This document shows positions 10,796 through 33,006 of a stretch of 64,000 nt of DNA, piece after piece (position 1 is the first letter of the stretch; each line of letters opens with the position of its first letter). The translations under genes and the position numbers were made by a program. The notes below the pieces were generated by a model. The model was given only the letters and a program-made list of their open reading frames with translations, did no database searches and was not told the DNA's origin. Location of the stretch: IMG/VR virus record IMGVR_UViG_3300035034_002581, one strand, 5' to 3'. The DNA comes from a virus.

Positions 10796-11200
10796 TCACT
10801 TGATTTGTATAATTTCGATTCCCGCATCTTTTAGTAACTCAATGCCGGACGTATCGACGTATTCTTTCTTGAAGTATACTATGTCTATATTAGCATTGAT
10901 AATTCTCTTTGCACACATTATGCAGGGACTAAGAGTAACATACATCTTCTTCTTCTTCGGGTTGTTGAAGTCGCACTTGATAAGTGCATTCTCTTCTGCA
11001 TGAATAAACCCAGACTTTCCCGTCTCAAAAGAGGCACGTTTGTTACTTCCTCCCTTTTCGTCGCCGTTGTATCCCACAGATAAAACTTGAGTATTATCAA
11101 GTGTTACAATTATAGCGCCCACTTTTGTTTTCTGATCAGATGATCTTCTGCTAATTTGCTCAGCAACTTTCATCCAAACTTCATTCCATTCTGGTCTCAT
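10796..11200 (-). CDS. dCMP deaminase (cytidine/deoxycytidylate deaminase zinc-binding fold)
   Basis: HAEENAL ... SPCIMCAKRI gives the H-[AC]-E ... P-C-x-x-C zinc motifs. The size (134 aa) fits. Confidence 0.75.
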   Translation of the reverse strand: MRPEWNEVWMKVAEQISRRSSDQKTKVGAIIVTLDNTQVLSVGYNGDEKGGSNKRASFETGKSGFIHAEENALIKCDFNNPKKKKMYVTLSPCIMCAKRIINANIDIVYFKKEYVDTSGIELLKDAGIEIIQIK

Positions 11201-12503: not shown

Positions 12504-13079
12504 TTACCACATGTCTCTTTCATTTGTGTAGCTGTGGCAGTTCCAGCAACGTGGTTCATATAGGTCGGCGCCGCCCACTTGTATCTCTTCTCCTTCTTCT
12601 ACCTTCCTCTGAGTATAAAATGCGTCTGCCTGACACTCTACACAAACAGCTGGACACTTTTCAATTCGTGTTGCCCAGGGCATTATCTTTGCAACTTCAT
12701 CAAATGCTTTACAAGACGCTGACATCTCCAAGGAAGACACAATTATTGTCTTACCAAGTCTAAAAAGACGTATTAGTGTTTCTGCTACATCATCTATCAT
12801 AAATGCTTCGTCAACAGCAATTACATCATAATCAACGTCAGAATCTATCAAGAATCTATAAATATCCTTAGCAGTTTCGACTGTGACTACTTCGACGTCG
12901 TCAAGCGTTAGACCTATGTGCGTCTTTATGTTTGTTTTTGAATAGCGATCATCCATGATAGGCTTAAAAGCTACTGTTCGCTTTTTTTGATACTTGTATC
13001 TATCGATCTGAGCTAAAAGTCGAGTAGTTTTACCACTAAACATCGGACCTGTGAAGAGGATAAATTCTGGATTACGCAT
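12504..13079 (-). CDS. tdk: thymidine kinase
   Basis: FTGPMFSGKTTRLL is the P-loop typical of TK1-type thymidine kinases. A C-terminal CxxC...CxxC zinc ribbon is present (CAVCVEC...CWNCH). Confidence 0.8.
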   Translation of the reverse strand: MRNPEFILFTGPMFSGKTTRLLAQIDRYKYQKKRTVAFKPIMDDRYSKTNIKTHIGLTLDDVEVVTVETAKDIYRFLIDSDVDYDVIAVDEAFMIDDVAETLIRLFRLGKTIIVSSLEMSASCKAFDEVAKIMPWATRIEKCPAVCVECQADAFYTQRKVEEGEEIQVGGADLYEPRCWNCHSYTNERDMW

Positions 13080-14112: not shown

Positions 14113-14135
14113 TTTTATCTCCTACTAGAAGTATT

Positions 14136-15059
14136 TTACCGCACCAGATGTGCAGAGTTTAAGCTAAAACTAAACTTAGCTTCTACAGGAGAACCTAGAT
14201 TGTATTTCTCATGAACTACACTTGCGAGGTAATAAATGAACTCAAGATCCTTGCGAAATGTCTTTGCAACGTTTGAAGATCGCAAGTTCACGTTTACATC
14301 CATAATGTTGTCTCTAAACAGAATATGAATGAGTGAAATGCATGTGTCGTCAGTGTATATAAAACGTCGAGATGTAGAAGTTTGTTTCTCGTTATACTCA
14401 TTCTTACCATTAAGCTCATTTGTCATCTTTGTAGTCATCTTTTCAAGTATACCCTTGAAGTAGTCCCCTTCTACATCGTCATCAAGAATTTCAGGATCAG
14501 CTTCTGGAAAATCAAGATCTTCAAAGAAGGTGAAACTCAATGGAACTTCGCAGTCTTTTGCTGATGTGCTTGGGATGTTTGACACGTATCTTAGTACTTC
14601 ACTTGCAATGTCATCTAAGTCACACTCTTCTTTTGTCTTGTTCCAAGCTACAATGTCATGTGTTGTTTCTTCGACACTTTTCGTATCATTTTCGACGTGA
14701 ATGACATTAGGTAGATTTGATATCCACTCTTGATCTTCGAACAAAGTGTAGAGTCGAGAAAGCGATTCTTCTGTTTGGAAATCATCGCCGCGTTTTTGGA
14801 ATCTAGCCTTGACTGTCTCCCAGGGCGGAAGGACAAAAACGACACGATTATTCAAACATGATAGCTCTGTCCAAAAATTACGTGCATGTTGAGTTAAGTT
14901 CCTACTATACATTTGACCGTAAACTAACATCGATAGCGTTGAACGATCTTGAATGTTCCATCGGAACGATGACTCTCTGTGTATCTGACTGTACAAAGAA
15001 GATTTACCAGAACAATCTGGTCCTTCTAAGATTAATTGACTTGTATGAAATCTGATCAT
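14136..15059 (-). CDS. thymidylate-kinase-like dNMP kinase with ~110-aa C-terminal extension
   Basis: ILEGPDCSGKSSL is the P-loop (compare Tmk IEGLDGAGKST). The DRSTLSMLVYGQ segment matches Tmk DRYxxSxxAYQ. Confidence 0.5.
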   Translation of the reverse strand: MIRFHTSQLILEGPDCSGKSSLYSQIHRESSFRWNIQDRSTLSMLVYGQMYSRNLTQHARNFWTELSCLNNRVVFVLPPWETVKARFQKRGDDFQTEESLSRLYTLFEDQEWISNLPNVIHVENDTKSVEETTHDIVAWNKTKEECDLDDIASEVLRYVSNIPSTSAKDCEVPLSFTFFEDLDFPEADPEILDDDVEGDYFKGILEKMTTKMTNELNGKNEYNEKQTSTSRRFIYTDDTCISLIHILFRDNIMDVNVNLRSSNVAKTFRKDLEFIYYLASVVHEKYNLGSPVEAKFSFSLNSAHLVR

Positions 15060-16707: not shown

Positions 16708-16888
16708 TCAGTAACTGCTGTTGAATTATCTCAGTTTTGAGGTGTTCTCGATAGATCTTCTCATTGTCCATCTGTATTCTTCGATACTTTTGGTACAACA
16801 TTGTAGCAAATCCTGGAATTGAAAACACTAAAATTGCTGAGCTGACAATGCCAGCTACAACGATCAGACCTATCAAGAAATTAGCCAT
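16664..16888 (-). CDS. small membrane protein
   Basis: 74 aa. The N-terminal TM segment is FLIGLIVVAGIVSSAILVF. It overlaps the methyltransferase start. Confidence 0.3.
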   Translation of the reverse strand: MANFLIGLIVVAGIVSSAILVFSIPGFATMLYQKYRRIQMDNEKIYREHLKTEIIQQQLLNEQLYNPSEKKNDN

Positions 16889-16989
16889 CAGTCACCCTTT
16901 GTCACAATGAAAGGCGCCGGCGCCCATAATTGTCTCCTTACTAGACAAGACAATTGTACCACAATTTGATGGTTATTTACAATCGAAGA

Positions 16990-19110: not shown

Positions 19111-19292
19111 TCTGAATCACGATATAGTAAACCAAGTGGTGTGTATATCTTGTAGCACAATCCTTCGGAATAAGGTGCTGGAATTTGGGCATCAGTTATG
19201 ATGCCTACTGTTTTGTTCTTGAGCGAACCAAAATGTCCCGTTGCTTTCCAGACACGAATTTCTACCAGGTCACCACGACCTACATTACTCAT
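19068..19292 (-). CDS. small KOW-like protein (GDLV family)
   Basis: GDLVEIRVWKATGHFGSLKNKTVGIITD fits the KOW pattern Gd.V.v...G.f.G..G.V. Confidence 0.35.
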   Translation of the reverse strand: MSNVGRGDLVEIRVWKATGHFGSLKNKTVGIITDAQIPAPYSEGLCYKIYTPLGLLYRDSDCLEIIQRDKTTWV

Positions 19293-19522
19293 ACTACTAC
19301 CTGCTTCATTGATTGTATTAGCTTAGCATTTATGTCTGTTCGCTTTATAATACAACCATCAGGTGCTAACATTGTATAGACAACACAAGATGATCTAGTG
19401 TTAAATGAGATGACTAGACCGACTGTGTCAACTTTAAAGTGTTCACTGTAACCTTTAGCATAGACAGTTATCTTAACTAAGTCACCGGAGTTAAGGCAGT
19501 TTCGTTTCATGCAATCCCTCAA
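19289..19522 (-). CDS. small KOW-like protein (GDLV family)
   Basis: SGDLVKITVYAKGYSEHFKVDTVGLV. Confidence 0.35.
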   Translation of the reverse strand: MRDCMKRNCLNSGDLVKITVYAKGYSEHFKVDTVGLVISFNTRSSCVVYTMLAPDGCIIKRTDINAKLIQSMKQVVV

Positions 19523-19739
19523 CTAATTCATAGTCCTGAAAAAATCTGGTGTGTATCGTGAGTGTTTCTGAATCAATGACTTTTGTTGTTGTGATGTATG
19601 TAATTTCTGAGCATCTCACATTCATCACGATTCCGAGGCTTCGTGTGGCCCTATGTCGGACTAGATCACCTCGCATGTATCTATACATCAGTCTAGATCC
19701 AGTGGACGAATCTTCCATGCTGTGGTCGATGGACCCCAC
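19491..19739 (-). CDS. small KOW-like protein (GDLV family)
   Basis: MRGDLVRHRATRSLGIVMNV. The start is probably an internal Met. Confidence 0.3.
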   Translation of the reverse strand: MGSIDHSMEDSSTGSRLMYRYMRGDLVRHRATRSLGIVMNVRCSEITYITTTKVIDSETLTIHTRFFQDYELVEGLHETKLP

Positions 19740-22700
19740 TTGTCGTCGCCCTTAGCTTGACACATCCAAACACTGAACCTTGGGATCTCTTCTTTGAGAT
19801 TACCCCAAACCTTGAGCCAAACAAGATTGTTGTCGCCATCTTGTGCTCTGATTCTGTGATACGTCTTGCCGTTCTTGGTCTTTTTAACTTGAACTTCTCG
19901 ACATAGGAACCATGCAACTGCTTCGACGCCACCTGGGATTTCTGTCAACGGAGGAATATCCTTCTCTTCAAGCCTTTCCAAAAACCCTTCTGGGAACAAC
20001 TGTTCATTACTAATGGCACTTCTAAGGTCAGCGTTGAATGTGATCTTCTCGGTTCGAGTCCAATCTTCATCGAACTCGACTGACTTGATTAGATCTGGGA
20101 GAATGTCTGGGACTGCCTTACCGTTCTTGATATCACGCTTAATACCCGCAGCAGACTTACCCTTCTTTCCTTTTCGCAATACGTTCCAATTGTCCATCAA
20201 GAGCGCATGTAGTTGTCGGTGATTTTCAAAAGTACCGTCTTTGAATTCAGCAAGTGAGTTGAACGCTTCGATTTTGCAGAGTGAATCAAATGATCCCTTG
20301 TTCATCTTAGAGTGATACCACTTGCCTTGGTCATCAAACAATAGATCTTCAAGACTCTTGAATGGACGAGATTCTAGGATCTCAGCAGCTGCAGTCTTAC
20401 CAACTCTCTTGATAGAAGAAAGCGGAGGTACGAAGGCATTGATTTCGTATGAGTACTCCCATTCAAATCCAGAGTGATTAATGTCGATCGGAGCAATTTC
20501 ATAGCCGAGACGCTTAAGTTCAACAATTGCCTTTGATAGACCTGTCGGACTGTTGTTCTCAGACTGCAAGATTGTTGCAATCCACTGCTCTGGATGATAA
20601 GTGAAGAGCCACGCGCCGAAGTAAGAGTCAATTGCATATGCAATGGCGTGAGACTTGTTAAATCCATAGACGCTGAAGAATTCGATCTTTTTCCAGAGTT
20701 CTTCTGAGATATGCTCTGGAATGTCATGGAGTTTCTTGGCGCCCTTGACAAACTGGTCTCTAGCAGCAGCACGCTCATCGCCCTTCTTACCCATTGTATC
20801 AAGTGACTTCTTAACAAGAGTCTTACGAAGTTTGTCAGATTCCGCAGGTGAGAATCCAGCTAGCTCTTGTGCAAGTAGCATGAACTGCTCTTGGAAGGAG
20901 ATATATCCGAGGGTCGGACTTAGGATTTTCTCAATAATTGGGTGATCATAAGTAATTGCAACACCTTCTAGCAGCTGTTTTTTTGTTGCAACATAGTCGG
21001 TGTGCACGTTAGCCTGGAGTGGACCGGGTCGGTAGATTGCAGTAATTGCGCCTAGCTCGGTTGCATCTGTTGGCTTGACCTGTCGACAGAATTCACGAGC
21101 ACCTTCAGCAGTAAATTGGAAGAGGCCTGGCGCAAAGTCTTGCTGATGATATGCTGTCTTGAAGACATGCAGATCATCGGGATCGTTTGTTCTGCAATTT
21201 AAGTGCTTGTCAAAGTAGGCTTTTACTTCATCAAACGTCGGCTTGGGATTACCTTCCTTGATTAAGATTCGACGAATACAGTTTCTAACGTCTTCCATGA
21301 GCGTCAACCCAAGGAAGTCAAACTTAATGAATCCGTTGTCTTCAAGGTTACGGAAGTTCATACCTTCTGTCCAAGGTGTTTGTAGTTCACCGCGAACAGA
21401 GATGATCGGCATCGTTCTTTCAAGCTGCTCAGGTGGAGCGATAATGACACCACCAGCGTGACGACCCAGACTCTTGTTCTGCATGAAAAGAGCAGCAATG
21501 TGTTGCTTAACCTCTGGGTACTCATCCATGAATGCACGGTACTTCTTAGAATACTTCATACAATCTGCGTGCTTGAGAACGAACACCGACTTCTCAGTGT
21601 TGGAGTCCTTAGCTTGAGGCATGACCTCTTCCTGTAGGCCACGAGTAAGATCAAAGACCTCAGAAGCAGGAATATCGTAGAATGAAGAAATGTCCTTTAG
21701 TAATGACTTGAGTTTCAAAGTATTGAAGTTAGACACAGGAATGACTGCGTCGTTGCCGTAAAGTTCACGTGCAGCGTTAATCAAGACGTCGCGGTCGCCA
21801 ACATCAGAGTCGATGTCAGGCCAAGAAGTACGGTGTCGACCAAGGAATCGCTCCCAAAGTAAACCGTATTTCAGTGGATCCACCTGTGTAACACCGAGAA
21901 GATAGTTGACAAGTGAACCAGCACCTGATCCTCGACCACATCCAAAGAGCGTTGATTTAGCAGCAAGGTTAAAGACCTGATACATGACCAAGAAATAGTT
22001 TTCAAACCCAAGGTGCTTGATGTCAGACAACTCATAGTGAGCGCGCTTGATATACTCTGCGTTTTTAGCAAAACCTTCCTTGATCAACCCTTCCTTAACG
22101 AGTTTTGCAAGCTGATTGAAGGCTGACTCTTCTTTGGTAGAAAAGTTAGGTAGCTTTGCTTCAGTGTCAATCCATGTGTCAGAGCACATATCCCAGCAAA
22201 TGTCGTGTGTTCGCTCAATTGAGTCACGAACAATTGCTTCGGTGCCTTCATAGAATGGGTACTTGTCTTTATGTGCAAGGTACTCATCCCACATCTGTTG
22301 TGCATTTTTAGGATAGAGTTCACACTTTAGATCTTCTTTCTTCGGAAGACCCTCGTCATCTTTTCGCTTCCAACCAAGGCGTCTATAGAGTTCTCGTGCT
22401 TGCCACAATTCAGGTGCTGGATAGTGAGAGTCAGCAGTGGCCACAAGTGGAATACTAGTCTTCTCAGCAAGCTTGATTAGTGCAGCATTTGTTAGATGCT
22501 GGGCTGGGAGGCTGTTGAACTGCATCTCGAGAAAGAAGTTTTCTTGACCAACAGCGTCGACAAATCGGTCTGTCATGTTTTCGAGGCGATTCATGACATT
22601 GACAGCAGCTTGGCCAGTTAGAAGATCAGGGTGAAGCTCATCGAACTTCTTATCAGGAAACTCCTTGTAGATCAAACCAGAAGCTGCGCCACCGACGCAT

Positions 22701-23254
22701 GCTGTACTTACGATAAGACCTTCGCTATGTTCTTTGAGCATGTCATAGTCAATACGAGGGAAGCGATAGAATCCATGCTTGAAAGACTTCTTGACGAGCC
22801 TGTAAATATTGTGAAGACCTTCTTGATTCTTGGCCAAGACAACTAGGTGATAGTATCGCTGCCAATCTGGCTTTCCGGACGATCTTGTCTCTTCCTCAGA
22901 CTCAATGACGTGTCCTTCCTCTTCCTCATTAGAAGTTTTCGCCTTTGCTGCAGCCTTTTGTGCTTTGTGAGCTTCATAATCTAATCGCCACTGTGTCAGA
23001 GAGGGGACAAAGTAAAACTCTACGCCATACAACTGACGGAACTTCTGACCTTTCTTTCTTCTCTTTTCATACTCTTTCCTTGCGTGAGCATGAGAGTTTG
23101 CATTTCCGTGATTTGTAATCGACCAAGCGTCCATTTCGTTGTTAAGAACGAATTCGACGTGATCTGATGGATATCCTAAACCATCGTATGTAGAGAATCC
23201 ATCGTGAGCGTGTAGACCGACGAATCGGTTAGGTGGTCGAATTAACTTTGACAT
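19688..23254 (-). CDS. dnaE: DNA polymerase III alpha subunit (DnaE-type replicative polymerase with N-terminal PHP domain)
   Basis: ~1190 aa. The N-terminal PHP motif RFVGLHAHDGFSTYDG matches E. coli RFVHLRVHSDYS. Downstream Pol III alpha core motifs follow. The start was moved to the second in-frame ATG (MSKLIRPP) because it is preceded by GCTAGGAGTATAATG, a perfect SD. Confidence 0.85.
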   Translation of the reverse strand: MSKLIRPPNRFVGLHAHDGFSTYDGLGYPSDHVEFVLNNEMDAWSITNHGNANSHAHARKEYEKRRKKGQKFRQLYGVEFYFVPSLTQWRLDYEAHKAQKAAAKAKTSNEEEEGHVIESEEETRSSGKPDWQRYYHLVVLAKNQEGLHNIYRLVKKSFKHGFYRFPRIDYDMLKEHSEGLIVSTACVGGAASGLIYKEFPDKKFDELHPDLLTGQAAVNVMNRLENMTDRFVDAVGQENFFLEMQFNSLPAQHLTNAALIKLAEKTSIPLVATADSHYPAPELWQARELYRRLGWKRKDDEGLPKKEDLKCELYPKNAQQMWDEYLAHKDKYPFYEGTEAIVRDSIERTHDICWDMCSDTWIDTEAKLPNFSTKEESAFNQLAKLVKEGLIKEGFAKNAEYIKRAHYELSDIKHLGFENYFLVMYQVFNLAAKSTLFGCGRGSGAGSLVNYLLGVTQVDPLKYGLLWERFLGRHRTSWPDIDSDVGDRDVLINAARELYGNDAVIPVSNFNTLKLKSLLKDISSFYDIPASEVFDLTRGLQEEVMPQAKDSNTEKSVFVLKHADCMKYSKKYRAFMDEYPEVKQHIAALFMQNKSLGRHAGGVIIAPPEQLERTMPIISVRGELQTPWTEGMNFRNLEDNGFIKFDFLGLTLMEDVRNCIRRILIKEGNPKPTFDEVKAYFDKHLNCRTNDPDDLHVFKTAYHQQDFAPGLFQFTAEGAREFCRQVKPTDATELGAITAIYRPGPLQANVHTDYVATKKQLLEGVAITYDHPIIEKILSPTLGYISFQEQFMLLAQELAGFSPAESDKLRKTLVKKSLDTMGKKGDERAAARDQFVKGAKKLHDIPEHISEELWKKIEFFSVYGFNKSHAIAYAIDSYFGAWLFTYHPEQWIATILQSENNSPTGLSKAIVELKRLGYEIAPIDINHSGFEWEYSYEINAFVPPLSSIKRVGKTAAAEILESRPFKSLEDLLFDDQGKWYHSKMNKGSFDSLCKIEAFNSLAEFKDGTFENHRQLHALLMDNWNVLRKGKKGKSAAGIKRDIKNGKAVPDILPDLIKSVEFDEDWTRTEKITFNADLRSAISNEQLFPEGFLERLEEKDIPPLTEIPGGVEAVAWFLCREVQVKKTKNGKTYHRIRAQDGDNNLVWLKVWGNLKEEIPRFSVWMCQAKGDDKWGPSTTAWKIRPLDLD
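23217..23250. repeat. 34-bp direct repeat copy 1 (covers dnaE codons 2-13)
   Basis: ccgacgaatcggttaggtggtcgaattaactttg is identical to the copy at 23799..23832. Confidence 0.8.
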
Positions 23255-23798
23255 TATACTCCTAGCTGTCATTACTCTAGCAGCTTTTAAGGACGGCCGA
23301 CTAGCTTATTTTTGTTCTTGTATATTGTACCATCAACTAGTACACAATTACACATTTTGTTTCCTCTTTGTAATCGAAAAGTATATACAAAGAAGAATGT
23401 TATTGAAGGCAGGCAGAACCTACGGAGAGGGTTACGACCCCTCTACCACTTTAGATCAACTCCCGTGGACGGCTATCCTCCGTCTTTGTATATCGGGCCA
23501 GCATTTAATGGTCTGCACGTTTAAAGTTGTCGCCCCCTTCTTCAGCTTTCATCATCTTACGTTATTAGATTACTTGCTTAGTGAAGCTGCCTGCTATCCT
23601 GATTGGGTGTTTCTCCTCAATAACAAAAATGATAATTTACTCTACTCATGTGACAGATTTGCTTTAGCTTTCTCAGCTCTCACTGCATCATTGAGAACTG
23701 CCAGCCTTCCTTCGCGACTTTTGTATGAATAAATTGCATCGTCTAACATCTTCTGTTCGACATGCGTTTTAAGGCCCTTACCTTCATTTGTTACCCAG

Positions 23799-25065: not shown

Positions 25066-26148
25066 TCAATAAAACTTGGTCAAGTCGATATTGAGTTCAT
25101 CAGCAGCTTCTAGATACTTAAGCGGATTGTAGTGTGATCCGCCACAAATTTTAGAGAGTATTGTCTCTACAACATCTTCAATACCTGATTCAAGATTAAC
25201 CGTTGGCGACCATCCAGAGGTCTTTCTGAAGCTTTTTGATGACAACCTATGGTTTCCAAGGTAGTCAGTTTTTGGATTCCATCTGACTATTTCTGACGGT
25301 ACTTTAAGCTGATCAATTATTTTGATAAATGGCGGCCAGTCTTTAAATGATACTGTGTGTGATCTCATACTGGCTGCTAATACTTGATCAACTGTGTCAA
25401 TAATCTCACCAGTAACTCTAGGATCTTCAGCGGCGACAATGAAATCTTGACCCCACAGATTTTGTTCAGCTGCCATTAACACAGCAGTACAATAATCCTT
25501 GACATGAAGATAGTCTTTGTACTTGGTTGGATCGAGAAACATATCGATTTCTTCTCTTCCTATCATTGCTCCGTAAATAGACTTGGCAATTAGAGAGTTC
25601 ATGTCGCCTTCGCCGCCATATGCAAAGAGAGGCCTGATGATGTTTGTTTTGCCTTTCGATTCTCTTACGATCATGTCACCTGTTTGTTTTAGCTGACCGT
25701 AGTAAGTTGTAGGCTTTACCGTGCTTTTCTCTGTGATGAGTGTGTGTTGGTAATTTGGAGTGTCATAGATTACTGTCGTTCCCATGTAGCTTACTAAGAT
25801 TCCTTCTGCTTCGCATGCTCTAACAATGTTGTAAGTTCCGTTCACGTTTGTAAGAGTTGCCTCAGCAGCAGACAGTGCAACGACGTCTGTACCTACAACT
25901 GCAGCATTGTGTATAACAAGATCAACCTCGAAATGTGTAAGTGCTTTTCTCCATTCCACGATTGTATTCTTGTGTACGCAAGGCTCCATAAACATAGAGG
26001 GCTGATGTGGTTCGCCTTTGACCCGCCAGATAAGATGTTTAGCAGCTTCTTCAGTACACAAAGAAACGAACTCATGGCCTCGTTTTTTGATTTCTTTAAT
26101 TAGTCCTTGAGCGATGAAACCTTTTTCACCAGTGATTGCAATTTTCAT
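25066..26148 (-). CDS. NAD(P)-dependent epimerase/dehydratase (SDR family)
   Basis: MKIAITGEKGFIAQGL is a Rossmann motif. YGQLK is the YxxxK motif. The length is 360 aa. Confidence 0.6.
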   Translation of the reverse strand: MKIAITGEKGFIAQGLIKEIKKRGHEFVSLCTEEAAKHLIWRVKGEPHQPSMFMEPCVHKNTIVEWRKALTHFEVDLVIHNAAVVGTDVVALSAAEATLTNVNGTYNIVRACEAEGILVSYMGTTVIYDTPNYQHTLITEKSTVKPTTYYGQLKQTGDMIVRESKGKTNIIRPLFAYGGEGDMNSLIAKSIYGAMIGREEIDMFLDPTKYKDYLHVKDYCTAVLMAAEQNLWGQDFIVAAEDPRVTGEIIDTVDQVLAASMRSHTVSFKDWPPFIKIIDQLKVPSEIVRWNPKTDYLGNHRLSSKSFRKTSGWSPTVNLESGIEDVVETILSKICGGSHYNPLKYLEAADELNIDLTKFY

Positions 26149-26318: not shown

Positions 26319-26393
26319 TTATCTTTCCTCTAAACAAAGCAGGCTATCTCTAACTATTTGTCAAAGATAGCCCTTTTCATGTATGATCAAAGA

Positions 26394-26837
26394 TTACTCA
26401 ATGTTGCCTTCATACATCTCAACAGCAAGTGATCCATCTGCTAAAGAGCGCTTGATATAGGCATCAAGATCTTCAAGTGATGTACAGACTGTGACACCAG
26501 ATGCCGACAACATAAGGTTAAACTTAGCGCCTTCAGGTAAACCTGCACAGAAGTAAACGATTGGTCGATCTAGGCAATGGAAATACCCTGCCTCGAAGAT
26601 TGAACCCATGTCCTTGTTTCGAGTGTTGCAGATCATCCAGTCTGAATCTTGCATGCCCTTGATGTTGCCACTGAAGATCTTGTCTTGCAGCGAAAGGGAT
26701 GCATCAGCAGGTGCAACAGCTTCATCACGTGGCGAGAAGTAATTCAACCCATTGTCGTCAAGAACTTTCTTGATTGCCTCAAGCTCTTCGAGCCACTCTG
26801 GACTAAACCAACCGCTTGCTATGTAACACTTCTTCAT
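26394..26837 (-). CDS. nucleoside 2-deoxyribosyltransferase / dNMP N-glycosidase (Rcl/DNPH1)-family protein
   Basis: MKKCYIASGWFSPE corresponds to the family N-terminus (YxAGPxF). DMGSIFEAGYF matches the catalytic D-x-G-[ST]-x-F-E-x-G-Y motif. Confidence 0.6.
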   Translation of the reverse strand: MKKCYIASGWFSPEWLEELEAIKKVLDDNGLNYFSPRDEAVAPADASLSLQDKIFSGNIKGMQDSDWMICNTRNKDMGSIFEAGYFHCLDRPIVYFCAGLPEGAKFNLMLSASGVTVCTSLEDLDAYIKRSLADGSLAVEMYEGNIE

Positions 26838-26862
26838 TCGTATTCTCCCTTTATTGTATTTG

Positions 26863-27846
26863 TCATTCTACCCACCCAACGTCAGTTTTCCATGCAGAAT
26901 ATTCTTCTCGAATGTCTTTCACTTCCTTGTCATAACCTTCCATTAGTTGGTCGAATCTAAAGTTCTCGGGCTTACCAAGTTCTGGGTCTGTTCCGTTAAC
27001 TTCATTTCTGTAGCAGTTGTAGATGAAGTCTTCTGGGTGCCAGTCAAACTTATCGGAGTCGGCATCGGGCCAGTACAGATTCGTAGCCTTTCCAGTACGA
27101 GCTGTTGCAATGTAGTGGCGAGAAGCTGCATGCGGATTGATGCATGATGTAATCTCTGGGAACAACTTAGCGACAGCAATAAACATCTGGTATGCCATCA
27201 CATTGTCTGTTGTAGGCTGAATCTGCTTATCAAAACGCTGACGAAGGAAGTTGAGCATATCCTTTAGGTTGCATCGGGCGTAGTAGTGTGTCTCAATAGC
27301 TCTAGGAAGGATTGTCCTTGCATCCATGATTGAAATCTTACGAGAATCAATCATATCACAGTACAACTCCTTTGCATCTTCAACGTGCTTCTTCCAACGC
27401 TCGTAGAGTTCTGGACTGTTCTGGACAGGACCTGGAACTAGCGCATTGCTATGTGACTGCCAACGATCTCCAGTACACTGAGCGCTGAATGAGAACGTTC
27501 TGTGTCTGATGAGATGGGTGACTGTCTGTAGATCGATGCCTTCAATGCGGAAGGTAAAGTCCAAAGTCTCCATAACAGTCGGAAGTGCTTTGTAATTGAG
27601 AGCGAGTTCGAGTGCTTCATGTCCCTTCCATGCTGGGACATCGTCCGGGTTGTGCATTCCTGGTGCGTCTTCCCATGTAGCATTGATAAACTGATAGACC
27701 ATTCGCCTGACACGCTCAGGATCAGGATAGTCGAGCAAAACTACATTTAAAGAGTCAAGATCGTTCTTGAACTCAGTTGTTGGCTTTTCGTCAAAGCGAA
27801 TCGCCATGGGAAATTCTACGGGCTTTAATTTTTTGTCTTGTGGCAT
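26863..27846 (-). CDS. divergent ThyX-like (flavin-dependent thymidylate synthase family) paralog
   Basis: FTFRIEGIDLQTVTHLIRHRTFSFSAQCTGDRW matches the ThyX core (FxFxI...sRa...Ql.RHRxxSfsqxSxRY). A Cys replaces the signature Ser and TGDRW replaces SQRY. It is 327 aa against 229 aa for the canonical ThyX at 32317. Confidence 0.5.
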   Translation of the reverse strand: MPQDKKLKPVEFPMAIRFDEKPTTEFKNDLDSLNVVLLDYPDPERVRRMVYQFINATWEDAPGMHNPDDVPAWKGHEALELALNYKALPTVMETLDFTFRIEGIDLQTVTHLIRHRTFSFSAQCTGDRWQSHSNALVPGPVQNSPELYERWKKHVEDAKELYCDMIDSRKISIMDARTILPRAIETHYYARCNLKDMLNFLRQRFDKQIQPTTDNVMAYQMFIAVAKLFPEITSCINPHAASRHYIATARTGKATNLYWPDADSDKFDWHPEDFIYNCYRNEVNGTDPELGKPENFRFDQLMEGYDKEVKDIREEYSAWKTDVGWVE

Positions 27847-27899
27847 CCTTTATTCCTCACTAAATATTACAACTTTTGACGTAAATGTTCAAACTATTT

Positions 27900-28070
27900 C
27901 TAGACATCATTCCAGTAGCTATCTGGCTCAGATGACGCTTGCTTAATTACCCTTAGCACCTTCGACCATTCGAAGAATAAGTAGTGTTCACAATTGTCAG
28001 CACCATGAAGATGCTTCTCGGATTGCCACACATTTATGGATTCTAGAGAGTCAATAATATTTTTGGTCAT
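27900..28070 (-). CDS. small hypothetical ORF (56 aa)
   Basis: Manual translation gives MTKNIIDSLESINVWQSEKHLHGADNCEHYLFFEWSKVLRVIKQASSEPDSYWNDV. It lies in an otherwise ORF-poor ~600-bp region. Confidence 0.2.
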   Translation of the reverse strand: MTKNIIDSLESINVWQSEKHLHGADNCEHYLFFEWSKVLRVIKQASSEPDSYWNDV

Positions 28071-28457
28071 TAATCGCTCAAAGCTTTAAGTTGATATGAG
28101 ATGATCTCTGGCTTGCCCTTTAGTTTAAATCGGAACCCTGTGCTCTTTACAATGACAATATCATAAAAGTCAGCTGAGTCTAGTTGGTCTTGGACGAGAC
28201 TGCTATAATCACTGCTAGTGTCTACAAATGAACCTAGGAGTTCACTGCATCAACGCCATTATCGTCTGTCCATGTTGAAATAGCAAGAAATCTCTGTGAA
28301 TTAGACTCAACGAGCTTGATCATTTCTTTATGACGTCCGCTTAGAATTTTGTCAGTCAAGTAGCCGTTTTTATACAAGGCCCTGACAAGAGGTGATGTAA
28401 ATTCTAAGACGAAGTCAATTGTTTTTTATATCTTTTTCTTTGTCGCTTACACATAGT

Positions 28458-29378
28458 TTAGTCCTTCTTTGTGAGTCTTTTAACAAAATTGTACAACCCA
28501 TCCGCTGTATCGTACATTGTCACATTTTCAACATTTTCTAGATCAGCATTAACTGATGTTCTGGGTGATAGTGTATGTACTCCGTGCTTTGCGTATTCTG
28601 TTGCATGCTTTGGTGAATCATCAATAGCACAAACAACCTTTTCGCTCTTGTAGTAATCAGTTCTTGCTAGCCACAAATATTTCTCAGGTGAGAAACTAAT
28701 TCGATGACATTTGATACCACTCTTTTCAAGCCAGGCGTAAGTGTCGTATTTGCATACAAGGAGATCGGCTGGTCGCGCTGTCAATAGATGGATCCAGTAT
28801 CCTTCGTCGTAGAGTTTGTTTATCGTTTCTACGATGCTAATGTTTGTTCTCATTGATTTGAGTCGTCTAGCCTCAATGAACTTCATGTACATTTCTTCTG
28901 TGATTGAGTAGTAAGCAGTTGAATCTTCATCAGGAACGAAGTCAGTATTTGCCTTAACCCATCGTGTGCATTCGTCTTTAAAGGGCGTCAAAACGTCATC
29001 AACATCAACGATGATAACGGGCTGCCCTTCCCACTTGACCTGCTCTTTATTAAAGCGCGTGTTTAGATGCAGATCACGTACACTGAAGGCGTCTTCAAAG
29101 TCATCGTGAGTAATCCCCCACGTGTTTAAGATAGCTAGAAGATACCTGAAGGCGTCGACAGATTCGTGTAAGATTTTGCTAAGCTCTGGACTTTCATCTT
29201 TTGCACGGTGGTGACGATAATTGACGCCATCTAAGATATCGCCAACTTCCTTTTGTAAAGAAGCAGAGAACTGCAACGTAAGTTTCTCTCTATCTTCTTG
29301 AGTTAGATTCTCGTGATCAATAAAGTTCTCGGAAAATCGCTTTTGCTTTAGTAGCATTTCTTTAAAAGTATCTTTCAT
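28458..29378 (-). CDS. MazG-like NTP pyrophosphohydrolase domain fused to HAD-superfamily phosphatase (5'-nucleotidase-like)
   Basis: The N-terminal ~110 aa parallel the standalone MazG-like ORF at 29422 (EVGDILDGV...ILHESVDAFRYLLAIL versus EEVFEALNHL...FLEEWVDAMNYFFSVL). The C-terminal half has PVIIVDVDDVLTP, HAD motif I (DxDx[TV]). Confidence 0.5.
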   Translation of the reverse strand: MKDTFKEMLLKQKRFSENFIDHENLTQEDREKLTLQFSASLQKEVGDILDGVNYRHHRAKDESPELSKILHESVDAFRYLLAILNTWGITHDDFEDAFSVRDLHLNTRFNKEQVKWEGQPVIIVDVDDVLTPFKDECTRWVKANTDFVPDEDSTAYYSITEEMYMKFIEARRLKSMRTNISIVETINKLYDEGYWIHLLTARPADLLVCKYDTYAWLEKSGIKCHRISFSPEKYLWLARTDYYKSEKVVCAIDDSPKHATEYAKHGVHTLSPRTSVNADLENVENVTMYDTADGLYNFVKRLTKKD

Positions 29379-29421
29379 GTAATCCTCTAGTAATTATTAC
29401 ACATTACTAGAGGATGTTCAA

Positions 29422-29838
29422 TTAATAGTCACTTCTAAGTCGCTCATGGATAACTCGATCCTTTTCTACATAGGACTCATATATTTCATGAGGTGTGAAT
29501 CCTGCAAGAATAAGCACAGAGAAGAAGTAATTCATAGCATCTACCCATTCTTCTAGAAACTTGTCACGATCAAAGTCAGGCATTTCTGTCTTGCGATGAG
29601 GTTTCCAGTTCTTTAGATGATTAAGTGCTTCAAAGACCTCTTCTACGCCACGTAGAGAGACGTCTCTTAAGTTCCTCTGTGACTCTTTTGACCTTAAGTC
29701 CAAAGGCCATTCAGACTGTGCTCCGGGTCGATTCCTACTTAAAGCATGCATAAACTCTTCACGAAGTCTAAACATCTCTTCAAACCTGTCAGGGACAGGA
29801 GGCACCGGCATTGGCGCATCTTCATCAAAGCGATCCAT
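29422..29838 (-). CDS. MazG-like all-alpha NTP pyrophosphohydrolase
   Basis: RGVEEVFEALNHL matches ExxExxEA. DKFLEEWVDAMNYF matches the EExxD(x)L second MazG motif. Confidence 0.5.
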   Translation of the reverse strand: MDRFDEDAPMPVPPVPDRFEEMFRLREEFMHALSRNRPGAQSEWPLDLRSKESQRNLRDVSLRGVEEVFEALNHLKNWKPHRKTEMPDFDRDKFLEEWVDAMNYFFSVLILAGFTPHEIYESYVEKDRVIHERLRSDY

Positions 29839-30080
29839 TATTCACTCTCGTTGTCTTCTGATAGCATCTTTGTCTGGTGGTCTTCGACTTCTTGCATCAT
29901 AGAGTTAATTTGCTTTTCAAAAAGCTCCCTATAATCTGCAGTAAGAGCAAGCTTACCATCTTCTGTCGGTTCAACTTCGATCATTCGAATATGATCAATG
30001 ATGTCTGTTCCCGACAAGATCGCGAGTTGCAATGTGTCTCTAAGTTGCCCAATTAGTTCGTCTGCGAAATGATACTTCAT
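29838..30080 (-). CDS. hypothetical protein
   Basis: 80-aa ORF. Its start overlaps the MazG-like stop in an ATGA coupling. Confidence 0.3.
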   Translation of the reverse strand: MKYHFADELIGQLRDTLQLAILSGTDIIDHIRMIEVEPTEDGKLALTADYRELFEKQINSMMQEVEDHQTKMLSEDNESE

Positions 30081-30123
30081 ACTATCTCCTATTTGACTAT
30101 CTTAATTCTTCTGTCTTATTTGT

Positions 30124-30954
30124 TTAAGTTTGAACTGACGGTACCCAATGGGTAGTTCGCTTATCTTTTGTTGTTTCTTTGATTACCTTGTTACCTTCGG
30201 GGTCTTCTTTCTTACCGTAAACTTTTAGCTTAAATTGGAAAGACCCTTCGTTTCCGTTAGGGCTCCTGTAGTTCTTTATAGTGGTTCCACGGTATTTGTA
30301 GCTTGATGACATTACATCACATATGATTTTGCATAAAAGCTCCCACTCCTTATCTGATACATCATAGACAGGACGATTAGGTGATATCTTTGACATATAC
30401 AGCACTTCTGCCTTTATATAATTTCCTACTCCTGCAAAATAACTCTGATTCATTAGTACTTCTGCAATTGTCTTCTTTGTTTGACGCAACTTAGCTTTTG
30501 TAATGAACTTTTTGCTTTGCAATACGCTTTGTCGCAAAGGATCCCAACCAAGACTGTCAAGTTTCTTTTGAAGAGCTTTGGATTCTGAAACATACTTTAG
30601 TGTTCCGAAATTTCGCATATCACAAAACACAAGCGTTGTATTATTGTCAAGTGTGAATCTAGCATGACCATGTTTTGGAAACTCCTCTCCGTCTTTTACA
30701 ATGGACCAGTTTCCTGTCATCCCAAGCGTATTAAAGATGTAAGGTGCATCTTCGAGGAGAAAGTAAATAAACTTACCCTTGGCACGAACAGCTTCAATCA
30801 TAGCTGGAAGAGAAGACTTAAGATCTTCATCACCAAAAGGCTTCTTTTCTCTTGAGTATCTTCCTGATGCGTATTGCACTTTCGTGATTGATCTTCCTTC
30901 TACAAATCGTGAGATTTGATCTACTACGATCGCAACTTCAGGGCCTTCTGGCAT
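30124..30954 (-). CDS. formamidopyrimidine/endonuclease VIII-family DNA glycosylase (Fpg/Nei)
   Basis: The N-terminus MPEGPEV is the hallmark Fpg/Nei motif, with Pro2 as nucleophile and Glu3. The size (276 aa) fits. Confidence 0.75.
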   Translation of the reverse strand: MPEGPEVAIVVDQISRFVEGRSITKVQYASGRYSREKKPFGDEDLKSSLPAMIEAVRAKGKFIYFLLEDAPYIFNTLGMTGNWSIVKDGEEFPKHGHARFTLDNNTTLVFCDMRNFGTLKYVSESKALQKKLDSLGWDPLRQSVLQSKKFITKAKLRQTKKTIAEVLMNQSYFAGVGNYIKAEVLYMSKISPNRPVYDVSDKEWELLCKIICDVMSSSYKYRGTTIKNYRSPNGNEGSFQFKLKVYGKKEDPEGNKVIKETTKDKRTTHWVPSVQT

Positions 30955-31223: not shown

Positions 31224-31587
31224 CTACAGCGTCTTTTTTGATAAGGTGTGAAACAATATCGACAACTACATCAACTTCAAATATTTCATCGACCCTATCA
31301 GCTAAAGGCTTAACTCTATCAGCTAAAGGCTTAACTCTTTCACGTACATCATTCTTTAGTGTCTCCGCAAAGTACGCACGATTAAATTCCTTTGAGTTGA
31401 TAGGCTCCTTGATATCGTGAACGATTCGGAACAGCTCATTGTGAAACTTATTAGATGGGTATATCTTGATGCTGCTCAACCTTTCTCTTAGTGTGTCTCT
31501 ACTAATATCTCTTGCAACGTACTGGTCGACGAGTTCCATTAGTGCATTAATTACTTCGTTATCTACTTTTTTACTCACTGTCTTCAT
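31207..31587 (-). CDS. hypothetical protein carrying an in-frame perfect 21-bp tandem duplication
   Basis: 126 aa. RVKPLADRVKPLADRV is encoded by 2 x ctatcagctaaaggcttaact at ~31295..31336. Confidence 0.35.
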   Translation of the reverse strand: MKTVSKKVDNEVINALMELVDQYVARDISRDTLRERLSSIKIYPSNKFHNELFRIVHDIKEPINSKEFNRAYFAETLKNDVRERVKPLADRVKPLADRVDEIFEVDVVVDIVSHLIKKDAVDAAVL

Positions 31588-31837
31588 CCATTAGCATTAC
31601 TGCCATTGCAGCGTAGTTGTGTAAGTCTATCAGCGTATCACGAAGGCTTTCGTCTTCAACAAGCGAGACACCATTTTTTGTGATAGCAGACATTCTACGA
31701 ATCTTATCACCCATCCTAACCAAGACACCGACAGGACCAAAGTCGGAAAATGCATCTCCGTAGTCCTTGTTCTTTCTTGAAAAGAGTGCAAATGCCTCGT
31801 CTTGGACAGCTCTTAGCTGCTTCTCTCTATCGTTCAT
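31571..31837 (-). CDS. hypothetical protein (possible small all-alpha NTP-PPase-like)
   Basis: 88 aa. EAFALFSRKNKDYGDAFSDFGPVGVLVRMGDKIRR. The similarity is weak. Confidence 0.3.
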   Translation of the reverse strand: MNDREKQLRAVQDEAFALFSRKNKDYGDAFSDFGPVGVLVRMGDKIRRMSAITKNGVSLVEDESLRDTLIDLHNYAAMAVMLMDEDSE

Positions 31838-32316: not shown

Positions 32317-33006
32317 TTATGTCCTATTTGCAAATGCCGCGACGGATACTGGCCACAATGTCAATGCAATTGTGTTTAGTGCCTCAGCAACTTTCTGAAT
32401 TTCCCACTGGGCACCTTCATGGGTTCTCAATCTAATAAAATGCATCAAGTTATGCAAATTTACTGTACCATAATATTCTGTATAAAGATTTTGAGGTAAT
32501 ACTCCTCTCGCTTGTTCGCGACAGACTCCTGCGTCAAGCAATTTTTCAAAAAGTGCAAGACTGTGTATATGATGCACGAGGACTGCTTCTGACGCTTTTG
32601 TTTTTATGTTATCGAGTGAAACAATGTCAGGGTCGATCAATTCATTTTCGTTCGATGCCTGTCTGTTAGATTTATGCTGTGTTCTAAACTCTTGTGGTTC
32701 ATAGAACCTCATGTTAATGTCAGTGTATCTTCTACTAATCTCGTTGTATGCCCATGTCCTATGACGATGATGCTGTGATCTAACGTAAAGTGGCACTGTA
32801 AATCTAAATGTTGCTGTGCAGTGCTCGAATGGTGACGTATGATTGTGCTTGGCAAGATAGTTGATAAGCTTTTCATCTTTACTGTCAACTTCTCCTTTTT
32901 GTCCACCAAAAGAAACTCGAGCAGCGTTAACAACGCTTAAGTCAGTGCCCATGTGACTAATAAGTTCTACTTCACCAATTCCGTCTTCGTATAGTTCAAT
33001 CTTCAT
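32317..33006 (-). CDS. thyX: flavin-dependent thymidylate synthase ThyX
   Basis: Canonical RHRTWAYNEISRRY gives RHR-x7-S. The N-terminus has VVNAARVSFG. The length is 229 aa. Confidence 0.85.
   Translation of the reverse strand: MKIELYEDGIGEVELISHMGTDLSVVNAARVSFGGQKGEVDSKDEKLINYLAKHNHTSPFEHCTATFRFTVPLYVRSQHHRHRTWAYNEISRRYTDINMRFYEPQEFRTQHKSNRQASNENELIDPDIVSLDNIKTKASEAVLVHHIHSLALFEKLLDAGVCREQARGVLPQNLYTEYYGTVNLHNLMHFIRLRTHEGAQWEIQKVAEALNTIALTLWPVSVAAFANRT

Follow-up and report, generated by a model that had tools for sequence, protein, structure and literature searches.

A conserved phage gene cassette around a divergent ThyX-family protein suggests editing of the pyrimidine deoxynucleotide pool

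Organisation of the cassette

The IMG/VR virus record IMGVR_UViG_3300035034_002581 carries, within a stretch of 64,000 nucleotides, a compact group of genes for nucleotide-handling enzymes arranged around a divergent paralog of the flavin-dependent thymidylate synthase ThyX, here called the ThyX-like protein. The whole stretch is referred to as the window. Transcription is all from the minus strand, the guanine-plus-cytosine (GC) content is about 41%, and the source is a large tailed phage, uncultured and marine, with two sheath-like proteins, a DnaE-type polymerase, DnaB, a UvsX/RecA-like recombinase, a single-stranded DNA-binding protein, a ribonucleotide reductase (RNR) and ClpP. An original prediction, made from the letters of the DNA, had placed five enzyme genes on one strand between positions 26,394 and 30,954: a nucleoside 2-deoxyribosyltransferase (NDT), the ThyX-like protein, a pyrophosphatase fused to a HAD phosphatase, a stand-alone pyrophosphatase and an Fpg/Nei-family glycosylase. 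All five open reading frames (ORFs) were found intact on the minus strand with exactly these limits and were confirmed by domain searches (Table 1). A sixth small conserved gene, s80, lies among them.

Table 1. Features of the cassette and of the neighbouring nucleotide-metabolism genes in the window.
Feature	Position	Strand	Length	Basis
NDT	26394..26837	-	147 aa	PF05014 Nuc_deoxyrib_tr
ThyX-like protein (divergent ThyX paralog)	26863..27846	-	327 aa	PF02511 Thy1, partial
Spacer	27847..28457	-	611 bp	short ORFs only
Pyrophosphatase-HAD fusion	28458..29378	-	306 aa	homologs with PF08761 + PF06941
Fusion, N-terminal domain: all-alpha NTP pyrophosphatase (dimeric dUTPase/MazG superfamily)	29034..29378	-
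Fusion, C-terminal domain: HAD phosphatase, NT5C 5'(3')-deoxyribonucleotidase type	28458..29033	-
Stand-alone all-alpha NTP pyrophosphatase	29422..29838	-	138 aa as called	phrog_12184
s80, conserved protein of unknown function	29838..30080	-	80 aa	sub-threshold Pfam match only
Fpg/Nei-family DNA glycosylase/lyase	30124..30954	-	276 aa	three Fpg/Nei domains
Terminator-like hairpin	26341..26373	-		14-bp stem + T-rich tail; 21 nt downstream of NDT stop codon
DUF1599 (nucleotide modification associated domain 1) protein	31571..31837	-	88 aa	PF07659 1.2e-9
Canonical ThyX	32317..33006	-	229 aa	Thy1 2.9e-49 over full model; RHR...E-x-S-x-R-Y intact
P-loop kinase-like (N-terminal) protein	14136..15059	-	307 aa	phrog_761 4.7e-12; Pfam weak AAA only
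dCMP/cytidine deaminase	10796..11200	-	134 aa	PF00383 2.7e-21
Thymidine kinase	12504..13079	-	191 aa	PF00265 2e-43; orthologs in L008, L009

The hairpin downstream of the NDT gene is the probable 3' end of the cassette transcription unit. This assignment is made from position and stem length only, since terminator-like sites in the region (6 found against 5.1 expected from shuffled sequence) show no overall enrichment, and neither do the promoter/terminator sites taken as a whole. The spacer between the fusion gene and the ThyX-like gene holds ORFs of 56 residues (27900-28070) and 47 residues; the former has no match in Pfam or PHROG, and an Rfam scan of the window gave no match. Among the related metagenomic contigs L003, L004, L008 and L009, the spacer is without counterpart in the last three, where the fusion and ThyX-like genes abut or overlap, while L003 has a single 66-residue ORF at this position. 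The spacer could be a decayed insertion, for example a former homing-endonuclease gene.

Identity of the cassette enzymes

The ThyX-like protein matches PF02511 Thy1 with E=1.7e-23 and 83.8 bits against a cut-off of 24.8, covering model positions 49-191 only, which is the C-terminal three quarters of the model; on the TIGR02170 thyX equivalog it reaches 61.2 bits, under the cut-off of 87.9. The AlphaFold2 model (predicted local distance difference test, pLDDT, 87.7; predicted template-modelling score, pTM, 0.86) predicts a ThyX fold. The top Foldseek matches of this model were ThyX structures and the UMP/dUMP methylase PolB at 17-22% identity, and the ThyX matches had a probability of 1.00 and target template-modelling (TM) scores of 0.62-0.72 over 216-240 columns.

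Residues were mapped by profile alignment to the ThyX of T. maritima, whose sequence was entered by hand, and to the canonical ThyX of the window, which gives the same motif contrast to the ThyX-like protein. In T. maritima numbering, R78/H79/R80 (ThyX-like R114/H115/R116), R147 (R177), R174 (R204, invariant in the alignment) and E58 (E93) are kept; changed are Q75 (H111), E86 (A122), Y91 (W129), H53 (L88) and E144 (M174), and C124 and D127 of the ThyX-like protein are inserted. The full ThyX motif RHRxxSxxxxSxR(Y) is absent, its second half reading S-F-S-A-Q-C-T-G-D-R-W; E86, S88, R90 and Y91 are the residues that hold deoxyribose and phosphate in T. maritima. The substrate loop is remodelled to SAQC124TGD127 (SAQCTGD), with C124 and D127 invariant across a 37-sequence alignment, and in the wider family it reads Q/A-Q-C-[ST]-G-D. 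The protein also has N- and C-terminal extensions, with about 95 conserved residues after the ThyX core. Judged from its fold, aligned residues and equivalog score, it looks like an active nucleotide-binding flavoenzyme that is not an ordinary ThyX, and it probably still binds flavin and a nucleoside monophosphate, with the sugar/base-edge part of the pocket rebuilt.

Homologs of the ThyX-like protein number 778 at E<=1e-5; more than 120 have 49-100% identity and about 327 residues, on contigs of up to 298 kb. A profile search of 1.84 billion representatives found 74 clusters (50% identity) at E<=1e-30 and 309 at E<=1e-10. Because most of these clusters are 280-350 residues long and cover the N-terminal extension, the ThyX-like protein represents a large family distinct from canonical ThyX, a branch so far uncharacterised. 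Among its carriers are marine DnaE-type myoviruses, PolA and PolB phages and the thermophilic Geobacillus phage GR1.

The two pyrophosphatases had been called MazG-like, which holds only at the superfamily level. Neither matched PF03819, the family of MazG proper, at E<=0.01, and their PF08761 scores were weak (fusion 20.2 bits, 138-residue protein 22.2 bits, cut-off 22.9). Many homologs of both carry PF08761, and PHROG pyrophosphohydrolase matches were significant for both, namely phrog_173 for the N-terminal domain of the fusion and phrog_12184, a nucleotide pyrophosphohydrolase, at 2e-17 for the 138-residue protein, which is a paralog of that domain (hhalign 97.9%, E=4.8e-13). On sequence grounds, both units are probably dimeric-dUTPase-family (PF08761) paralogs. 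A genuine PF03819 protein adjoins the ThyX-like gene in L004 and in the locus L005. PDB sequence searches with both pyrophosphatases yielded chance-level matches only, and hhalign comparisons of the DUF1599 protein and s80 with the pyrophosphatases, in which hidden paralogs were tested, found no relationship. Alignments of relatives to the stand-alone pyrophosphatase begin only at residue 15, and residue 10 is an internal Met; the ORF was probably called too long, and its true start is perhaps this Met (29811-29838).

The fusion is a two-domain protein, as originally described, under corrected names: a probable PF08761-type pyrophosphatase joined to an NT5C-type HAD domain. It has 311 same-length homologs, many with PF08761 and/or PF06941 (NT5C). 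An alignment of 43 sequences shows the acidic metal-binding positions of the N-terminal domain to be conserved: E44 and D75 do not vary, and E/D47 and E72 were read from the displayed alignment rows. The HAD motifs I-IV are intact and invariant in the same 43 sequences (D125-x-D127, T200, K233, D253-D254). The fusion model has a pLDDT of 93.5, and Foldseek with the HAD domain returned the deoxyribonucleotidase-like structure 3bwv at the top (TM 0.80) and human cdN 2i7d (TM 0.67); PF06941 did not reach E<0.01 on the window fusion itself. The modelled HAD domain is accordingly best described as a predicted NT5C-type deoxyribonucleotidase.

The NDT is a member of PF05014, with 52.4 bits against a cut-off of 28.8 (E=6.8e-14), and matches phrog_7995 at 3.3e-27. 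It contains NKDMGSIFEAGY, with the catalytic Glu within DMGSIFEAG. The best PDB match was the short bacterial N-deoxyribosyltransferase 6evs (4.5e-7), whose DDTGTAWELG aligns with DMGSIFEAG, so that the D-x-G-x-x-x-E-x-G motif with its Glu is conserved. The deoxyribosyltransferase half of the earlier description stands; the supposed likeness to Rcl does not, as no DNPH1 or Rcl chain was among the PDB matches at E<=1. Nor did tblastn give a match at 1e-3 to the DmtZ-encoding Ghobes locus L006. Sequence being indecisive on this point, an activity of the NDT on deoxynucleoside monophosphates (dNMPs) is still conceivable.

Conservation of the cassette and displacement of the nucleotidase

The order Nei, s80, pyrophosphatase, fusion, ThyX-like, NDT is the same in L003, L004, L008 and L009, at 35-81% protein identity (51-81% for the ThyX-like protein). 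Scanning IMG/VR with the ThyX-like protein as a single sequence gave no match; an alignment-based scan gave 80 loci, which were annotated with profiles built here and form 20 clusters at 80% ThyX-like identity. Neighbour counts refer to the 62 IMG/VR loci with enough flank. Because the six-gene order recurs in four contigs and its core in 80 IMG/VR loci, the arrangement is not a chance juxtaposition.

Two variants can be distinguished. Variant A (7/20 clusters) has the order (Nei), s80, pyrophosphatase, fusion, ThyX-like, NDT, and variant B (13/20 clusters) the order (pyrophosphatase), NDT, HD (YfbR/HD_3) phosphohydrolase, ThyX-like, DnaE; neither Nei nor s80 was found in variant B. In 61 of the 62 loci an NDT is located no more than 10 kb from the ThyX-like gene, and either the fusion or an HD enzyme is present within 3 kb in 56 of them and within about 4 kb in 60. 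The fusion accounts for 37 loci and the YfbR/HD_3 enzyme for 19 within 3 kb or 23 within 10 kb, and the two nucleotidase types were never met together near a ThyX-like gene (0/62). HAD and HD proteins have unrelated folds. The HD proteins of variant B belong to the YfbR/HD_3 family, as does DatZ, of which they are distant relatives.

This mutually exclusive, non-orthologous displacement of one nucleotidase by another is the strongest new evidence that the cassette is one functional unit. Both solutions would give the same net reaction, from deoxynucleoside triphosphate (dNTP) or dNMP to deoxynucleoside. Because the triad of ThyX-like protein, NDT and nucleotidase recurs with the nucleotidase displaced in this way, its members are shown to be functionally coupled and not merely inherited in synteny. 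What stays constant at the centre of the module is the ThyX-like gene; the original prediction had recognised its divergence and counted it as one item among five. The proposed route from a dNTP to the free base, carried out by one functional unit, is reasonable in the light of the displacement and of the NDT count, and co-occurrence across the IMG/VR loci links the ThyX-like gene, the NDT and the nucleotidase. The glycosylase, which had been included in the unit, falls outside its core (see below). No description of a phage module of ThyX-like protein, NDT and nucleotidase was found in the literature that was searched.

A canonical ThyX accompanies the ThyX-like gene in the window, in L004, in L013 and in the clusters L045 and L049, and is present within 10 kb of it in 12/62 loci; L004 holds an ortholog of the window's canonical ThyX, and none is present within 10 kb in L003, L008 and L009. 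L087 has a ThyA-like gene near its ThyX-like gene, and in L065 one follows the ThyX-like gene directly. Because a canonical ThyX or ThyA-like gene is kept in several independent lineages, the ThyX-like protein appears non-redundant and not merely a thymidylate synthase.

The association is also independent of the replication module, being observed in PolA phages, PolB phages and GR1, while the polymerase of most carriers is of DnaE type. Among the PolA phages, L011 has an NDT, then a 112-residue pyrophosphatase, then the ThyX-like gene; L012 has an NDT, an HD enzyme, a 141-residue protein and the ThyX-like gene; and in L013 a fusion homolog overlaps the ThyX-like gene, with a DUF1599 protein also present. 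In the PolB phage L014, a 319-residue protein overlaps the ThyX-like gene. The small gene s80, found within 10 kb of the ThyX-like gene in 39/62 loci, has homologs of 35-49% identity in L003, L004, L008 and L009 and in the fusion-type cassette stands always between Nei and the pyrophosphatase.

Further observations concern the related contigs. L003, a 212-kb contig of GCA_024449875.1 and the closest relative, has inteins in its RNR large subunit and DnaE-type polymerase (1-3006, 17802-19514), and the window orthologs of both are intein-free. L004 has further candidate modification genes close by, at 14097-20987, which encode an NTP-transferase, a DegT aminotransferase, epimerases, Pyr_excise, an HhH-GPD-like protein and, immediately behind the NDT gene, a glutamine-synthetase-like amidoligase.

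The cultured carrier GR1

The cultured Geobacillus siphovirus GR1 (host G. stearothermophilus ATCC 10149; ThyX-like protein UDY80709.1) is a variant-B carrier, and the HD proteins of GR1 and of the locus L055 share 96% identity. GR1 has two NDT genes, a thymidine kinase, a nitroreductase directly upstream of the ThyX-like gene and, beside that gene, a P-loop protein related to the 307-residue protein of the window (26%). Apart from the ThyX-like gene (50%), what GR1 has in common with the window is limited to the NDT and the P-loop domain. Its own candidate modification genes (L001 8552-9931, 23306-24538) are those of a 459-residue glycosyltransferase, located between the genes of the HD enzyme and the ThyX-like protein, of an amidoligase and of a gamma-glutamylcyclotransferase.

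No close relative of the window phage was found in the cultured-phage collection. Searches against cultured phages gave no match for 10 kb of the window by megablast, only weak HAD matches in Streptomyces phages for the fusion by tblastn, and no tblastn match for the 307-residue P-loop protein; the DnaE-type polymerase of the window reached only about 28% identity.

The DNA glycosylase

The glycosylase starts with MPEGPEV and contains three Fpg/Nei domains (PF01149 1e-22, PF06831 4.1e-16, PF21025 5.4e-9), so that its assignment to the Fpg/Nei family was correct. It is not Fpg proper: on the TIGR00577 fpg equivalog it scores 185.7, below the cut-off of 203.3 for bacterial Fpg/MutM, and its best PDB matches were 3a45/3a42/3vk7/4nrw of mimivirus Nei1 (4e-43), ahead of MutM (5e-25) and E. 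coli Nei (2e-12). The alignment to MvNei1 matches P2-E3, the GK lysine and the C-terminal KRTT-W motif. No Cys, and hence no zinc-finger cysteine, occurs in the C-terminal domain, including the last 50 residues. The closest description by sequence would be a zincless glycosylase of the mimivirus-Nei1/NEIL1 type. Enzymes of the NEIL1/MvNei1 type remove oxidised pyrimidines, Fapy (formamidopyrimidine) lesions and hydantoins, not 8-oxoguanine; with mimivirus Nei1 as the nearest relative, the earlier proposal that this enzyme excises a specific purine finds no backing.

Only 17/62 loci have Nei within 3 kb of the ThyX-like gene; it is an accessory neighbour, probably a repair or policing enzyme of one sub-lineage, and not part of the core. 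The Nei profile found no Nei in three fusion-less representatives (L070, L056, L071). These counts also bear on a reading of the cassette as house-cleaning and repair against oxidised pyrimidines, in which dUTP, 5-OH-dUTP and 5-OH-dCTP would be destroyed down to the base and Nei would clear the same lesions from DNA. The type of the glycosylase, a Fe/Mn superoxide dismutase encoded in the window, the Pyr_excise and HhH-GPD glycosylases of L004 and the classical house-cleaning role of all-alpha NTP pyrophosphatases all agree with it. It nevertheless gives the invariant ThyX-like gene no role, Nei is missing from most cassette loci, and the HD-type variant does without both Nei and s80, all of which makes this explanation very improbable.

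Fpg/Nei homologs also occur in the cultured phages SP-10 and SP-15, which we take to carry hypermodified thymine, and in Bacillus phage G and Campylobacter phages, although several of the "phage" records among those matches resemble bacterial contigs. For SP-15 the hypermodified thymine is documented (PMC5977210). A link of the Nei family to phages with modified DNA is possible.

Neighbouring genes and the Z-genome alternative

Several neighbours of the cassette belong to nucleotide metabolism (Table 1). The DUF1599 protein has homologs in L003, L004 and L013, and also in L070 and L071, and the family recurs near canonical ThyX or dCMP deaminase in other lineages. The 307-residue P-loop protein has orthologs in L008 and L009 (37-40%) and, in 23/62 loci, sits at most 10 kb from the ThyX-like gene; it is a lineage-conserved candidate for a deoxynucleoside or nucleoside monophosphate kinase or a nucleoside kinase. 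The dCMP deaminase, predicted to supply dUMP, is within 10 kb of the ThyX-like gene in 10/62 loci. The window further encodes a Dam-type (N6-adenine) methyltransferase.

Directly upstream of a short PurA (368 residues) lies a gene of the GMP-reductase/IMPDH family (337 residues, no CBS domain; the pair at 16990-19110, minus strand). The two enzymes would convert GMP through IMP to adenylosuccinate, a purine interconversion from G to A, and the GuaC-like gene recurs in L008, L033 and L034. The PurA-like gene (18004-19110) matches phrog_1211, which is labelled as PurZ activity, and this match raises the idea of a Z-genome (2-aminoadenine) module in which the PurA-like protein is PurZ, the pyrophosphatases are MazZ/dATPase and the NDT is a DmtZ-like dAMP hydrolase. 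An NDT and all-alpha pyrophosphatases are indeed known in Z-phages (PMC12884076; bioRxiv 10.1101/2025.10.22.683976). The residues tell otherwise: the PurA-like protein reads A-W-G-D-E-G-K-G, as in PurA, and not the F-G-S of PurZ, in which Phe replaces the Trp and Ser the Asp13 of PurA and which is seen in Vibrio phage QH PurZ (Q-F-G-S-T-G-K-G) and Ghobes PurZ0 (Q-F-G-S-E-A-K-G), S14 being an experimentally supported PurZ determinant (bioRxiv 10.1101/2025.10.22.683976). In the PDB ranking it is far nearer to cellular PurA (8e-49) than to PurZ structures (8e-18, 3e-8), its GMP-reductase/IMPDH-family neighbour counts against a PurZ identity, and a PurA/PurZ homolog was found in 0 of the other 84 cassette loci, so that the PurA of the window is unique among 85. 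The Dam-type N6-adenine methyltransferase and the lack of similarity between the NDT and the Ghobes locus speak the same way, and the Z-genome explanation is effectively refuted.

Other genes of the window were noted in passing. A pterin-4a-carbinolamine dehydratase (4306-4725), a protein with a Fe/Mn superoxide dismutase C-terminal domain (8836-9585) and two NAD-dependent epimerase/dehydratases (13072-14112, 25066-26148) are all on the minus strand; in relatives the latter are kept beside the P-loop protein and the NDT, respectively, and their sugar-nucleotide product has no obvious acceptor, no glycosyltransferase family being found among the scanned window proteins. A family-A polymerase-like protein of 408 residues, with the palm/fingers part of PF00476 only, overlaps a 210-residue HD protein (43235-45056, minus strand); it is additional to the 1194-residue DnaE-type polymerase (19688-23272), and the HD protein is unrelated to the YfbR/DatZ-type HD of variant B. 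The stretches 45088-54543 and 58146-63869 (minus strand) encode three proteins of about 1000 residues without a Pfam match and two very long proteins (898 and 996 residues) with tail-sheath domains at their C-termini only.

Interpretation

Taken together, the region is best read as a conserved operon for editing the deoxynucleotide pool, which combines the draining of a pyrimidine dNTP with new C5 chemistry around a divergent ThyX-family flavoenzyme; we give this reading a probability of roughly 0.45. The fusion would take one pyrimidine dNTP through its dimeric-dUTPase-type pyrophosphatase to the dNMP and through its NT5C-type nucleotidase to the deoxynucleoside, and the NDT would remove or exchange the base of that deoxynucleoside, making the drain irreversible. 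The stand-alone paralogous pyrophosphatase would supply a dNMP, most likely dUMP, which the ThyX-like protein may convert by one-carbon chemistry at C5, either to a product other than ordinary dTMP or to dTMP by a non-redundant route. The lineage-conserved P-loop kinase would then re-phosphorylate this product, and the net effect would be the depletion of a canonical pyrimidine dNTP, with dTTP as the best guess, in favour of the product of the ThyX-like protein. Substrates, direction of flux and the effect on DNA composition are what we infer from gene identities, intact catalytic motifs, folds, conserved linkage and the HAD/HD displacement.

A pyrimidine-directed module, with one pyrophosphatase feeding the ThyX-like protein and the fused one draining the competitor together with the NDT, is favoured because pyrimidines are central to most of the characterised relatives (dUTP/dCTP pyrophosphatases, the dUMP/dTMP nucleotidase NT5C, the dUMP-using ThyX and the oxidised-pyrimidine glycosylase) and because the window holds a dCMP deaminase and a thymidine kinase. 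This suggests, although it is unproven, that phages with the cassette swap or rebalance a pyrimidine. In its strongest form, the ThyX-like branch would be the synthase of a non-canonical C5-substituted pyrimidine deoxynucleotide, the HAD or HD nucleotidase and the NDT would drain the canonical competitor, and the DNA would be partly or fully substituted; this form is tentative and somewhat doubtful.

Several points weigh against pool editing of this kind. By tblastn, no ThyA-like sequence or hydroxymethylase was found in the window, and no glycosyltransferase, 5-hydroxymethyluracil (5-hmU) DNA kinase or aGPT-Pplase family was found by Pfam and PHROGs among the scanned window proteins, an absence that holds for the scanned families only, several window proteins of 240-434 residues having no family match at all. 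The loop Cys is common and not universal across the wider ThyX-like family. The canonical ThyX, the thymidine kinase and the Dam-type methyltransferase of the window fit a canonical genome, and because they counter strict exclusion, at most a partial replacement of thymine is plausible; the exclusion or policing of a base, as put forward in the original prediction, is not supported. Base modification and the substrates of the enzymes are unproven, and palindrome and restriction-site avoidance (mean observed/expected 0.99, with mild CATG depletion only) does not separate modified from unmodified DNA.

Base composition belongs among these points as well. One alternative is ordinary thymidylate supply combined with deoxyribose salvage for an AT-rich genome, in which the ThyX-like protein is a divergent thymidylate synthase, no base is excluded and the DNA carries canonical bases only. 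Surplus deoxyribose of dG and dC from degraded host DNA would then pass, by base exchange through the pyrophosphatases, nucleotidase and NDT, into dU/dT and dA, and the thymidine kinase or the P-loop kinase would re-phosphorylate. The carrier loci are mostly AT-rich (GC mostly 0.29-0.48), and GR1 has 32% GC against 52% in its host (PMC10969951), both of which favour plain rebalancing of the pools. In GR1, no second thymidylate-synthase-family gene was found besides the ThyX-like gene, which equally well fits the gene being a plain thymidylate synthase. The dCMP deaminase, thymidine kinase, RNR, GMP-reductase-like enzyme with a true PurA, and canonical ThyX of the window would all push pools towards A and T, and the ThyX-like protein retains residues that align with the flavin- and phosphate-binding residues of ThyX. 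Salvage leaves unexplained, however, the second canonical ThyX or ThyA-like gene in at least six lineages, the changes of the ThyX-like protein at Q75, E86, Y91 and H53, and the tight tie to dephosphorylating and deglycosylating enzymes (61/62 and 56/62 loci), and the hydrolysis of a dNTP to the nucleoside by the fused enzyme would waste energy. We regard it as a serious if less likely rival.

Under a cytosine-directed scheme after the manner of T4, coexistence with the canonical ThyX is expected. Here dCTP would be hydrolysed to dCMP, the ThyX-like protein would methylate or hydroxymethylate dCMP, the P-loop kinase would phosphorylate the product, and the fusion and NDT would drain residual dCTP to cytosine while canonical ThyX and thymidine kinase keep making dTMP. 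PF08761 includes the T4 dCTPase, T4 has a comparable set of genes in gp56, gp42, gp1, cd, td, tk and nrd, and by analogy the inserted invariant D127 could read the N4 of cytosine, like Asp179 of the T4 dCMP hydroxymethylase. The invariance of R204, aligned with R174, which is said to bind the O4 of uracil, counts against this scheme, the dCMP deaminase of the same genome would use up the substrate, and no ThyX-family enzyme is known to act on cytosine. The scheme is improbable.

Relation to known systems

The pool-editing cassette proposed here would be a flavin-dependent counterpart of two known arrangements, the dTTPase plus dUMP-hydroxymethylase of phages with hmU or hypermodified thymine and the DatZ/MazZ/PurZ set. 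A dTMP 5'-nucleotidase is a classical activity of thymine-replacing and hypermodifying phages. In phage SH-Ab 15599, a dTTPase/dUTPase of the dimeric-dUTPase fold removes dTTP from the pool and supplies dUMP to a hydroxymethylase, with which a dCMP deaminase also works (PMC13458397); PhiW-14 induces a dTTPase, and in SP-15, which keeps a thymidylate synthase beside a hydroxymethylase paralog, roughly half of the thymine stays in place (PMC5977210). The cassette resembles the thymine-replacing phages (SPO1/phi-e type hmU, PhiW-14, SP-15, SH-Ab 15599) in linking an all-alpha pyrophosphatase to a C5 enzyme, with a dCMP deaminase (PMC13458397), and SP-15 in having a canonical thymidylate synthase beside the paralog (PMC5977210). 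It differs from them in that its C5 enzyme belongs to the flavin-dependent ThyX family and not to the ThyA family, in that its nucleotidase comes either as part of the pyrophosphatase fusion or as an HD enzyme, in the almost obligatory NDT, and in that the scanned window proteins lack the 5-hmU DNA kinase, aGPT-Pplase and glycosyltransferase; by these scans and the tblastn search for ThyA, the window does not qualify as a 5-hmU-based hypermodification system.

In Z-phages the drain of dATP has been shown experimentally, through DatZ/MazZ and a dA-preferring NDT or the dAMP hydrolase DmtZ (PMC12884076; bioRxiv 10.1101/2025.10.22.683976). The same plan of a synthetic enzyme, a supplying pyrophosphatase, an HD (DatZ) or other drain and an NDT-family finisher is found in the cassette (PMC12884076; bioRxiv 10.1101/2025.10.22.683976), and the HD enzyme of variant B is of the YfbR/HD_3 family of DatZ. 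Its synthetic enzyme, however, is a ThyX relative predicted to act on a pyrimidine and not an adenylosuccinate-synthetase relative, the PurA-like protein of the window is without the PurZ residues, and most carriers have a DnaE-type polymerase, not DpoZ.

With the T4 set gp56/gp42/gp1 the phage shares a putative PF08761-family pyrophosphatase, a thymidylate-synthase paralog beside the canonical one, a candidate kinase, dCMP deaminase, thymidine kinase and RNR. The enzyme family at the C5 step is another one, T4 has neither the nucleotidase nor an NDT, and a cytosine specificity of the cassette has no support in the data. Another precedent is PolB of Streptomyces cacaoi, a UMP/dUMP C5-methylase (4p5a/4p5b) that likewise combines the ThyX fold with a new specificity through changes in the substrate loop and is among the top structural matches of the ThyX-like model. 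Identity is about 21%, PolB is of canonical ThyX size and acts in antibiotic biosynthesis, and the phage family has its own loop and the C-terminal extension of about 95 residues. As for the accessory glycosylase, it shares with mimivirus Nei1 and human NEIL1 the PEGPEV N-terminus, the GK lysine, the H2TH and a Cys-free C-terminal finger with KRTT-W, and is shorter (276 against 287-295 residues).

Significance

GR1, as a cultured carrier of the HD-type variant, makes the question directly testable. If the product of the ThyX-like protein is not dTMP, the cassette would provide the first route to a modified DNA base through a flavin-dependent enzyme of the ThyX family, and it would represent a widespread nucleotide-exclusion module in abundant uncultured marine phages, which would bear on restriction evasion, on sequencing bias in metagenomes and on enzymes as tools for producing such DNA. 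Should the DNA prove canonical, the obligatory coupling and the HAD/HD displacement would instead point to a new salvage route by which these phages turn host deoxyribose into thymidylate.

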